64,000 bases of DNA, taken from the NCBI GenBank assembly GCA_934086185.1, contig CAKOHW010000004.1, positions 47,318 to 111,317 of the forward strand, given 5' to 3'. The notes below the pieces were generated by a model. The model ran no database searches. It had not been told where the DNA came from and saw only the letters and a list, made by a program, of their open reading frames with translations. The DNA is from an uncultured Bacilli bacterium. Its GTDB lineage: Bacteria > Bacillota_I > Bacilli_A > RF39 > UBA660. Of the stretch, positions 25,176 through 25,353 are shown in pieces. Position numbers and translations under genes: made by a program. How positions within the stretch are numbered: position 1 is the stretch's first letter; the number at the start of each line of letters is the position of its first letter.

Positions 25176-25187
25176 AAACAAATGTTT
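25176..25187. promoter_or_regulatory. Candidate LexA operator (AAAC-N4-GTTT palindrome) overlapping the lexA -35
   Basis: aaacaaatgttt is a perfect palindrome overlapping the minus-strand TTGACA of the lexA promoter. Confidence 0.4.
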
Positions 25188-25197
25188 TAATTTATTA

Positions 25198-25226
25198 TTG
25201 ACACGAACAAATATTCGATGTAATAT
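25198..25226 (+). promoter_or_regulatory. Consensus sigma-A promoter with a Cheo/LexA box (CGAACAAATATTCG, 25204-25217) filling its spacer
   Basis: TTGACA 25198-25203, exactly 17 nt, TAATAT 25221-25226; the GAAC-N4-ATTC box sits inside the spacer. Confidence 0.6.
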
Positions 25227-25248
25227 TAATTTGTAAGGAGGAAGTGTT

Positions 25249-25353
25249 ATGAAAAAATATCTATCAGAATATAAGGAGGTACTAATTTTTTATTTATCTA
25301 TAATTTTAACTTTTATTGGATTGTATTTTAAAGTAAAGTTTTTATTTGTTTAG
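25249..25353 (+). CDS. Small SOS-regulated hydrophobic peptide (34 aa), divergent from lexA
   Basis: AGGAGG RBS 8 nt upstream; MKKYLSEYKEVLIFYLSIILTFIGLYFKVKFLFV with one predicted TM; driven by the LexA-box promoter; not in the ORF track because it is short. Confidence 0.4.
   Translation: MKKYLSEYKEVLIFYLSIILTFIGLYFKVKFLFV

Follow-up and report, generated by a model that had tools for sequence, protein, structure and literature searches.

The stretch of DNA analysed here, which we call the window, is 64,000 nucleotides long and has a GC content of 23%. It carries a lexA gene and, divergent from it, a 34-codon open reading frame (ORF) for a small membrane peptide, the two start codons lying 120 bp apart. 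The interval between them holds a promoter for each gene, two putative LexA operators and a ribosome-binding site (RBS) (Table 1). Promoters, LexA box, RBS and ORF had all been described in an earlier note on this DNA, and each was found in the place it had been given.

Table 1. Features of the lexA/peptide locus and the gene that follows it (window coordinates)
Feature	Position	Strand	Details
lexA CDS	24511..25128	minus	205 aa; from the ORF listing and Pfam
lexA promoter	25149..25177	minus	-35 TTGACA 25177..25172, 17-nt spacer, -10 TAGTAT 25154..25149
Putative LexA operator 1, CAAACAAATGTTTT	25175..25188		15.9 bits on the matrix derived from relatives
Predicted SOS promoter of the peptide gene	25198..25226	plus	-35 TTGACA 25198-25203, 17-nt spacer, -10 TAATAT 25221-25226
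Putative LexA operator 2, CGAACAAATATTCG	25204..25217		18.5 bits, the best matrix score in the window
RBS AAGGAGG	25235-25241	plus	7 nt before ATG 25249; unpaired in the predicted mRNA fold
Peptide ORF	25249..25353	plus	34 codons, product MKKYLSEYKEVLIFYLSIILTFIGLYFKVKFLFV
UgtP/MGDG-synthase-like glycosyltransferase gene	25399..26520	plus	Pfam MGDG_synth 6.5e-20

The LexA protein has both of its domains by Pfam scan (LexA_DNA_bind, 1.2e-21; Peptidase_S24, 1.5e-31), together with the catalytic serine, in GESM, and the downstream lysine; every complete relative has both the Ser and the Lys motif. To judge from these features, an apparently functional cognate repressor is encoded right beside the peptide gene. 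The self-cleavage site of the window LexA (24853-24858, C92-G93) is Cys-Gly, within ISCGNP, where the canonical site is Ala-Gly. The Cys-Gly variant was counted in 9 of 81 sequences, among them the window, with L003 added by eye, and Ala-Gly in 68.

Both promoters match the consensus at 10 of 12 positions. That of lexA has an extended TG before its -10, and its -35 position is kept in relatives as TGTCAA joined to the operator. The palindromic core of operator 1, AAACAAATGTTT, occupies 25176-25187 and overlaps the lexA -35 by 2 nt, as the earlier note had proposed for a second palindrome; this lexA-proximal palindrome also proved to be a lasting feature of the locus, being kept in 78 of 81 loci. 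Operator 2 lies 29 bp away, centre to centre, and takes up 14 of the 17 spacer positions of the peptide promoter, with ATG completing the spacer. The idea that a LexA box is embedded in this spacer was therefore correct, and the layout is kept in relatives. Operator 2 agrees with CGAAC-N4-GTTCG, which we take to be the B. subtilis LexA box consensus, at nine of the ten specified positions, the single mismatch being ATTC for GTTC. The description of the promoter as textbook, or perfect, holds for its -35, but its -10 matches at only four of six positions, and so the wording was slightly too strong.

In the window, promoter-like hexamer pairs are common (28 found, 20.5 expected) and loose matches to GAAC-N4-GTTC are no more frequent than chance predicts (8 found, 7.3 expected), so that only a 14-mer weight matrix is informative. 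This matrix was built from relatives only, and the window was scanned with it at 15 bits or more, with 40 Markov-1 simulations serving as the control. Three sites were found in the 64 kb and none in the 40 simulations, and two of the three are the lexA/peptide pair. When 600 kb of related loci were scanned, 110 sites of at least 13 bits fell in lexA intergenic regions and only two elsewhere; these two, both weak, were all that the same scan produced in a search for further SOS genes. We infer that LexA binds at both boxes. The third strong LexA-box-like site in the window, CGAACAAAAGTTTG (7472-7485, 17.4 bits; none expected by chance), lies in a 580-nt intergenic gap (7017-7595) that has no convincing ORF, approximately 125 nt upstream of a gene for a 711-aa secreted protein. 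GGTC and then nine consecutive G come directly after it, an unusual stretch for DNA of 23% GC. The site may indicate a further transcript under SOS control, or a small RNA.

The peptide itself has a basic N-terminus, one transmembrane (TM) helix at about residues 11-29 and a C-terminal tail of five residues, with a single hydrophobic window (Kyte-Doolittle mean 2.4). Its exact product is unrecorded as a called gene in an index of 153 billion genes, in agreement with the earlier remark that it is missing from the ORF track. However short, the ORF changes in the manner of a gene. Pooled over 25 related pairs, pN/pS is 0.39, and the differences by codon position stand at 272:146:405, with third positions the most variable. 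Between the window and L002, where both peptides have 34 aa, pN is 0.19, pS 0.68 and pN/pS 0.28, which indicates that the short form is itself under constraint. By its pattern of substitution, then, the ORF evolves as a coding sequence and is a real gene. That a genuine coding gene sits at this divergent position, as the earlier note had supposed, is borne out by the pN/pS of 0.39 and by 67 homologous ORFs. Within the ORF, at codons Y8-K9-E10-V11 (25273-25279), AAGGAGG occurs once more without a mismatch, as it does in L001 and L002. It is not followed by an in-frame start; it may make ribosomes pause, or it may be no more than a by-product of the codons for YKEV.

Relatives were collected by a LexA protein scan, with one genome per species, which gave 80 loci with LexA identities of 62-100%. 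All are metagenome-assembled genomes (MAGs), labelled as uncultured Bacilli, Tenericutes or Mollicutes, or as Candidatus Coprovivens, Coprosoma, Pelethosoma or Faecenecus; Coprovivens, Coprosoma and Faecenecus have been assigned to three families of the order RF39 (PMC8035907). Judged by these relatives, the window too probably derives from an uncultured gut bacterium of RF39, within the Bacilli. The same arrangement of operator, promoter and ORF was seen in 67 of the 80 related lexA loci, so that the position beside lexA, whose lack of conservation would have counted against the original proposal, is in fact conserved. When the window is included, GTCAAAC-N4-GT is found within 120 nt of the lexA start in 78 of 81 cases, and the AAAC and GTTT columns of operator 1 are 93-100% conserved. 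The second site, present in 67 of the 80 loci and mostly 28-29 bp from the first, has the consensus TTGACA, then CGAACAAATGTTCG, then TGtTAaaAT, and an exact TTGACA is flush with the 14-mer in 54 of 68 loci. A start codon with a Shine-Dalgarno sequence follows 29-36 nt after the second site and opens an ORF of 33-64 codons (median approximately 46).

These peptides share a common anatomy. All begin with a basic stretch, 8 residues long in the median, and continue with a single hydrophobic helix. The helix is usually followed by a polar tail of some 20 residues, which has a juxtamembrane R-F-x-x-L-N-like motif and an ending of the form hydrophobic-x-hydrophobic-N. The 47-aa MELVKSKGLVIFLVVMLSITVISSINTRKFDERNKDIEKSYISMNIK is an example of a tailed member. 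Lysine and arginine are more frequent on the N-terminal flank in 63 of 68 peptides, and the mean net charge is +2.7 on the N-terminal flank and -0.6 on the C-terminal flank; by the positive-inside rule, this sequence pattern predicts a topology with the N-terminus inside and the C-terminus outside. A few members are shorter. The window peptide and those of L001-L003, and separately those of L069 and L075, end just past the juxtamembrane motif; the L001, L002 and L003 peptides have 33-34 aa and are encoded beside LexA proteins 79-100% identical to that of the window. The window tail has approximately five residues, against a family median of 20, and a tail is present in about 60 relatives. The 34-aa membrane peptide of the earlier note is therefore real, but it represents the short extreme of a family of 33-64 aa whose typical member carries a tail of about 20 residues; the remark that it is much shorter than known YneA-type proteins was accurate, and holds against SosA too. 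In L054 and L060 the conserved TTGACA-box-TGnTAnnAT promoter precedes, in place of the membrane peptide, a 62-aa non-membrane ORF (MEYYTINDIQILTGY...) that overlaps the start of the next gene and has no Pfam or NCBIfam match. This ORF may have come in with a mobile element and be controlled by the SOS response.

We are highly confident that this is a translated, LexA-controlled gene for a small membrane protein.

The family has so far gone without a name. Searches of the peptides against Pfam and NCBIfam with E-values up to 10 returned only chance hits far below the cut-offs, and no LysM domain was among them. A profile was made from the 68-sequence alignment of the family. Searched against 5.8 billion proteins, it gave 127 hits, only two of which are named at source, both as hypothetical protein. 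An exhaustive search of 1.84 billion cluster representatives gave 161 at E <=0.001, all of 29-85 aa and none with a domain fusion. The family thus comprises 161 clusters at 50% identity, the members of which have no functional name in any source. Two family members, P0100 (on at least 24 contigs) and P0092, were found by the peptide profile alone, and both are likewise encoded 131 bp away from a lexA gene that diverges from them. A literature search on LexA in RF39 found nothing relevant, and no Rfam RNA family matched at the locus.

One homologue, the 49-aa P0118, is encoded in a phage-like early operon (L085, 2501-2650). There, divergent cI-like and Cro-like HTH genes are followed by a 65-aa ORF, P0118 and a DnaB_2 replication gene, and the P0118 promoter has its own palindrome, which is not of the LexA type. 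P0118 and the chromosomal P0100 match at 19 of 20 residues over the helix and juxtamembrane segment, while both termini differ, which suggests that the helix is the part that matters for function. Phages are known to encode division blockers, and a phage-borne P0118 fits that habit. A search for more phage copies in viral contigs with P0118 yielded no confirmed relatives.

The wider neighbourhood also bears on function. Genes for EzrA, alanine racemase and a MurJ-like flippase are found in the window, and the FtsW, FtsI and recA genes lie outside it. Since most RF39 species are also predicted to have a peptidoglycan wall (PMC10868615), a division machinery based on FtsZ and a septal wall is to be expected. 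Farther along the window, GC skew falls from approximately +0.35 to -0.05 past a tRNA gene at 35988-36061 (window ~36000-48000); beyond it come several genes on the minus strand and one for a tyrosine integrase (41448-42614), and the region looks like an integrated mobile element.

The glycosyltransferase downstream of the peptide gene matches the NCBIfam diglucosyl-DAG synthase model at 1.9e-46, below the curated cut-off. What lies downstream changes from one relative to the next: transketolase in 25 loci, a UgtP-like glycosyltransferase as in the window in 8 of 68, polA in five, an M16 peptidase in four, a convergent gene in five, and other genes in the remainder. At least nine different downstream contexts were seen, with lexA the only constant neighbour, and a strong hairpin-plus-T terminator stands right behind the ORF in about 11 loci. 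The glycosyltransferase is thus a neighbour outside the conserved unit. A role for the ORF as leader peptide of the downstream gene was considered and rejected because that gene varies. In B. subtilis, UgtP is an FtsZ antagonist, and SOS read-through into the UgtP-like gene could matter, but that gene follows the peptide in only those eight loci. Downstream of the peptide gene in L050 is a protein of approximately 140 aa with weak similarity to SirA (Pfam E = 4.8e-4, below cut-off), and another of approximately 140 aa, SirA-like by eye only, is divergent from lexA in L058. The placement of the two echoes lexA-yneA-tkt-sirA in B. subtilis, where we presume the order to be lexA-yneA-yneB-ynzC-tkt with sirA nearby; no citable source was found for the yneA-yneB-ynzC-tkt part.

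Several readings of this gene have to be weighed. One is that the window ORF is a decaying remnant or a mere leader, and that its promoter really serves to place the glycosyltransferase and miaB under SOS control. The window form does lack the tail that some 60 relatives have. Moreover, neither a terminator nor a promoter of at least 9/12 was found between the window ORF and the glycosyltransferase gene; without a terminator, read-through from the SOS promoter is possible. However, the 33-34 aa form is kept in L001-L003 and shows the constraint described above between the window and L002, and in L002 the ORF is followed by a convergent gene, so that no downstream gene is served there. In relatives, the glycosyltransferase has a -10 element of its own within the gap, to which TG-a-TAAACT (25374-25382) corresponds by position in the window, while L009 and L023 carry the glycosyltransferase gene beside lexA with neither SOS promoter nor ORF. 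We therefore regard a remnant or leader as very improbable. A better case, though still for something we think unlikely, can be made for a LexA-regulated small membrane protein with another role in the damage response, such as modulating a transporter, a protease or a lipid enzyme, or a step of sporulation. Small membrane proteins often modulate larger ones, and in eight loci the gene comes directly before one for a membrane-lipid glycosyltransferase; RF39 bacteria are also predicted to sporulate with unusual regulation (PMC10868615). Against such a role, the downstream partner varies and only lexA is constant, and all characterised genes at such a position in Bacillota and Actinobacteria are division inhibitors (PMC6851548).

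The peptide could instead be an SOS-induced toxin of the TisB/DinQ type, which would depolarise the membrane and bring about growth arrest or persistence without the divisome being its target. A length of 34 aa, one hydrophobic helix and control by LexA are just what characterises TisB and DinQ (PMC3567139, PMC8145889). Sequence alone does not separate a depolariser from a divisome binder. TisB and DinQ are E. coli type I toxins of 29 and 27 aa which, like the window peptide, are small, form a single hydrophobic helix and are expressed from a promoter with a LexA box. However, they are not linked to lexA, and they have antisense RNA antitoxins and structured primary transcripts that are translationally inert, neither of which was seen here, though an antisense RNA that is weak or encoded in trans could escape such a search. 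Antisense promoters (10/12) were found in 7 of 68 loci, against 11 expected by chance, and no Rfam family matched; the leader is predicted to be approximately 15 nt long with the RBS unpaired, and the folding energy of -21 kcal/mol is no stronger than the shuffle mean of -23.1 (z = +0.77). The earlier suggestion of a type-I-like toxin found no support in these results, given the short, unstructured leader and the lack of a conserved antisense promoter. In addition, the part outside the membrane is, in typical members of the family, a conserved polar tail some 20 residues long, and the locus holds the yneA/sosA position beside lexA. A depolarising toxin seems to us distinctly unlikely.

The reading that we favour, and to which we give somewhat better than even chances, is that the gene encodes a LexA-repressed division inhibitor, a small single-pass membrane protein that would be the positional and topological counterpart of YneA and SosA. 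The Gram-positive SOS division inhibitors YneA, ChiZ, DivS and SosA have in common synteny with lexA, one TM segment and a C-terminus outside the cell, and they share little sequence (PMC6851548). The peptide studied here is likewise divergent from lexA and is predicted to have a single TM segment with its C-terminus out. What it lacks is the extracellular C-terminal domain of that class, whether the LysM domain of YneA and ChiZ or the approximately 45 residues of SosA. Large C-terminal truncations inactivate SosA (PMC6851548). YneA reaches the divisome by contact of its TM helix with TM7 of FtsW, and it needs LysM to block septal synthesis, since by itself the helix localises without blocking division; AlphaFold models suggest FtsW as the target of several other inhibitors too (PMC13396833). 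With only about five residues past the helix, the window form cannot work exactly as YneA or SosA does. The agreement in position, regulation and topology, coupled with the absence of an ectodomain, argues instead for an inhibitor acting via its helix, nearer to the design of SidA. The YneA/SosA analogue of the earlier note accordingly keeps its position, layout and topology, but it is not a member of the YneA family, since it lacks LysM and matches none of the models; in our analysis the peptide may be said to work like YneA, SosA or SidA rather than to be a YneA. It would represent a new, unannotated sequence family in a known role, with a reduced architecture and conserved across its order.

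We suggest that the system would operate as follows. In undamaged cells, LexA bound to operator 1, over the lexA -35, would regulate its own gene, and LexA bound to operator 2, in the spacer of the peptide promoter, would exclude RNA polymerase. DNA damage would lead to RecA-stimulated self-cleavage of LexA and would free both promoters, and the short, unstructured mRNA with its strong RBS should be translated immediately. The peptide would then insert into the membrane with its N-terminus in and its C-terminus out. We infer that its TM helix binds a late component of the divisome, most likely an FtsW-type septal peptidoglycan polymerase, and that septation would be delayed until repair is complete. 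A bolder proposal, to which we give somewhat less than even chances, is that the divisome inhibitors which RF39 gut bacteria make in the SOS response form a hitherto unrecognised family of minimal size (33-64 aa), whose helix is active on FtsW as in SidA, with the window form being naturally TM-only in a Gram-positive lineage, and that this helix has been captured by temperate phages to stall host division during lytic growth.

If the favoured reading is right, an unannotated family from an abundant uncultured gut order would be added to the small set of Gram-positive DNA-damage checkpoint effectors. The helix of YneA binds FtsW and yet needs LysM for inhibition, which raises the question of what part of an inhibitor is sufficient; the natural series from tailed peptides of about 50 aa to nearly tail-less ones of 33-36 aa could show this. 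Helices as minimal as these could also serve as a guide in designing inhibitors of SEDS polymerases. It is also worth noting that gene callers miss an SOS gene here, the 34-aa product being unrecorded as a called gene. A small membrane gene opposite lexA in Bacillota is what a specialist would expect, and what makes the case interesting is how broad the family is, how small its members are and that tail-less forms occur naturally, rather than any new principle.

Among known systems, YneA of B. subtilis and Listeria (105 aa) resembles the family in having LexA boxes in the intergenic region shared with lexA. The slot is also alike, with lexA, a divergent small membrane protein and then transketolase (in 25 of our loci), and a SirA-like gene in one. 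In contrast, YneA combines LysM with its TM segment; the family has no LysM, no Pfam or NCBIfam match, no detectable homology to YneA and no conserved partners of the yneB or ynzC kind. The TM helix of YneA is the element that targets FtsW (PMC13396833). SosA of Staphylococcus (77 aa) is, like the family, divergent from lexA and LexA-controlled, has one N-terminal TM helix with the C-terminus out, lacks LysM and shows no conservation beyond its own clade (PMC6851548). There is, however, no detectable sequence similarity between the two, SosA is longer than the 33-64 aa of the family, and it has approximately 45 extracellular residues, required for its activity and for turnover by CtpA, where the window peptide has about five.

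SidA of Caulobacter crescentus (29 aa) belongs to an unrelated phylum with a diderm envelope and shows no sequence similarity to the family, and its gene is not known to lie next to lexA. Without the outer tail of about 20 residues, the window form nevertheless resembles SidA more than YneA. Both are minimal and essentially TM-only, and SidA is an SOS-induced inner-membrane protein that inhibits division via FtsW, a precedent which shows that a peptide of such a size can suffice for a late-division block (PMC4211646).
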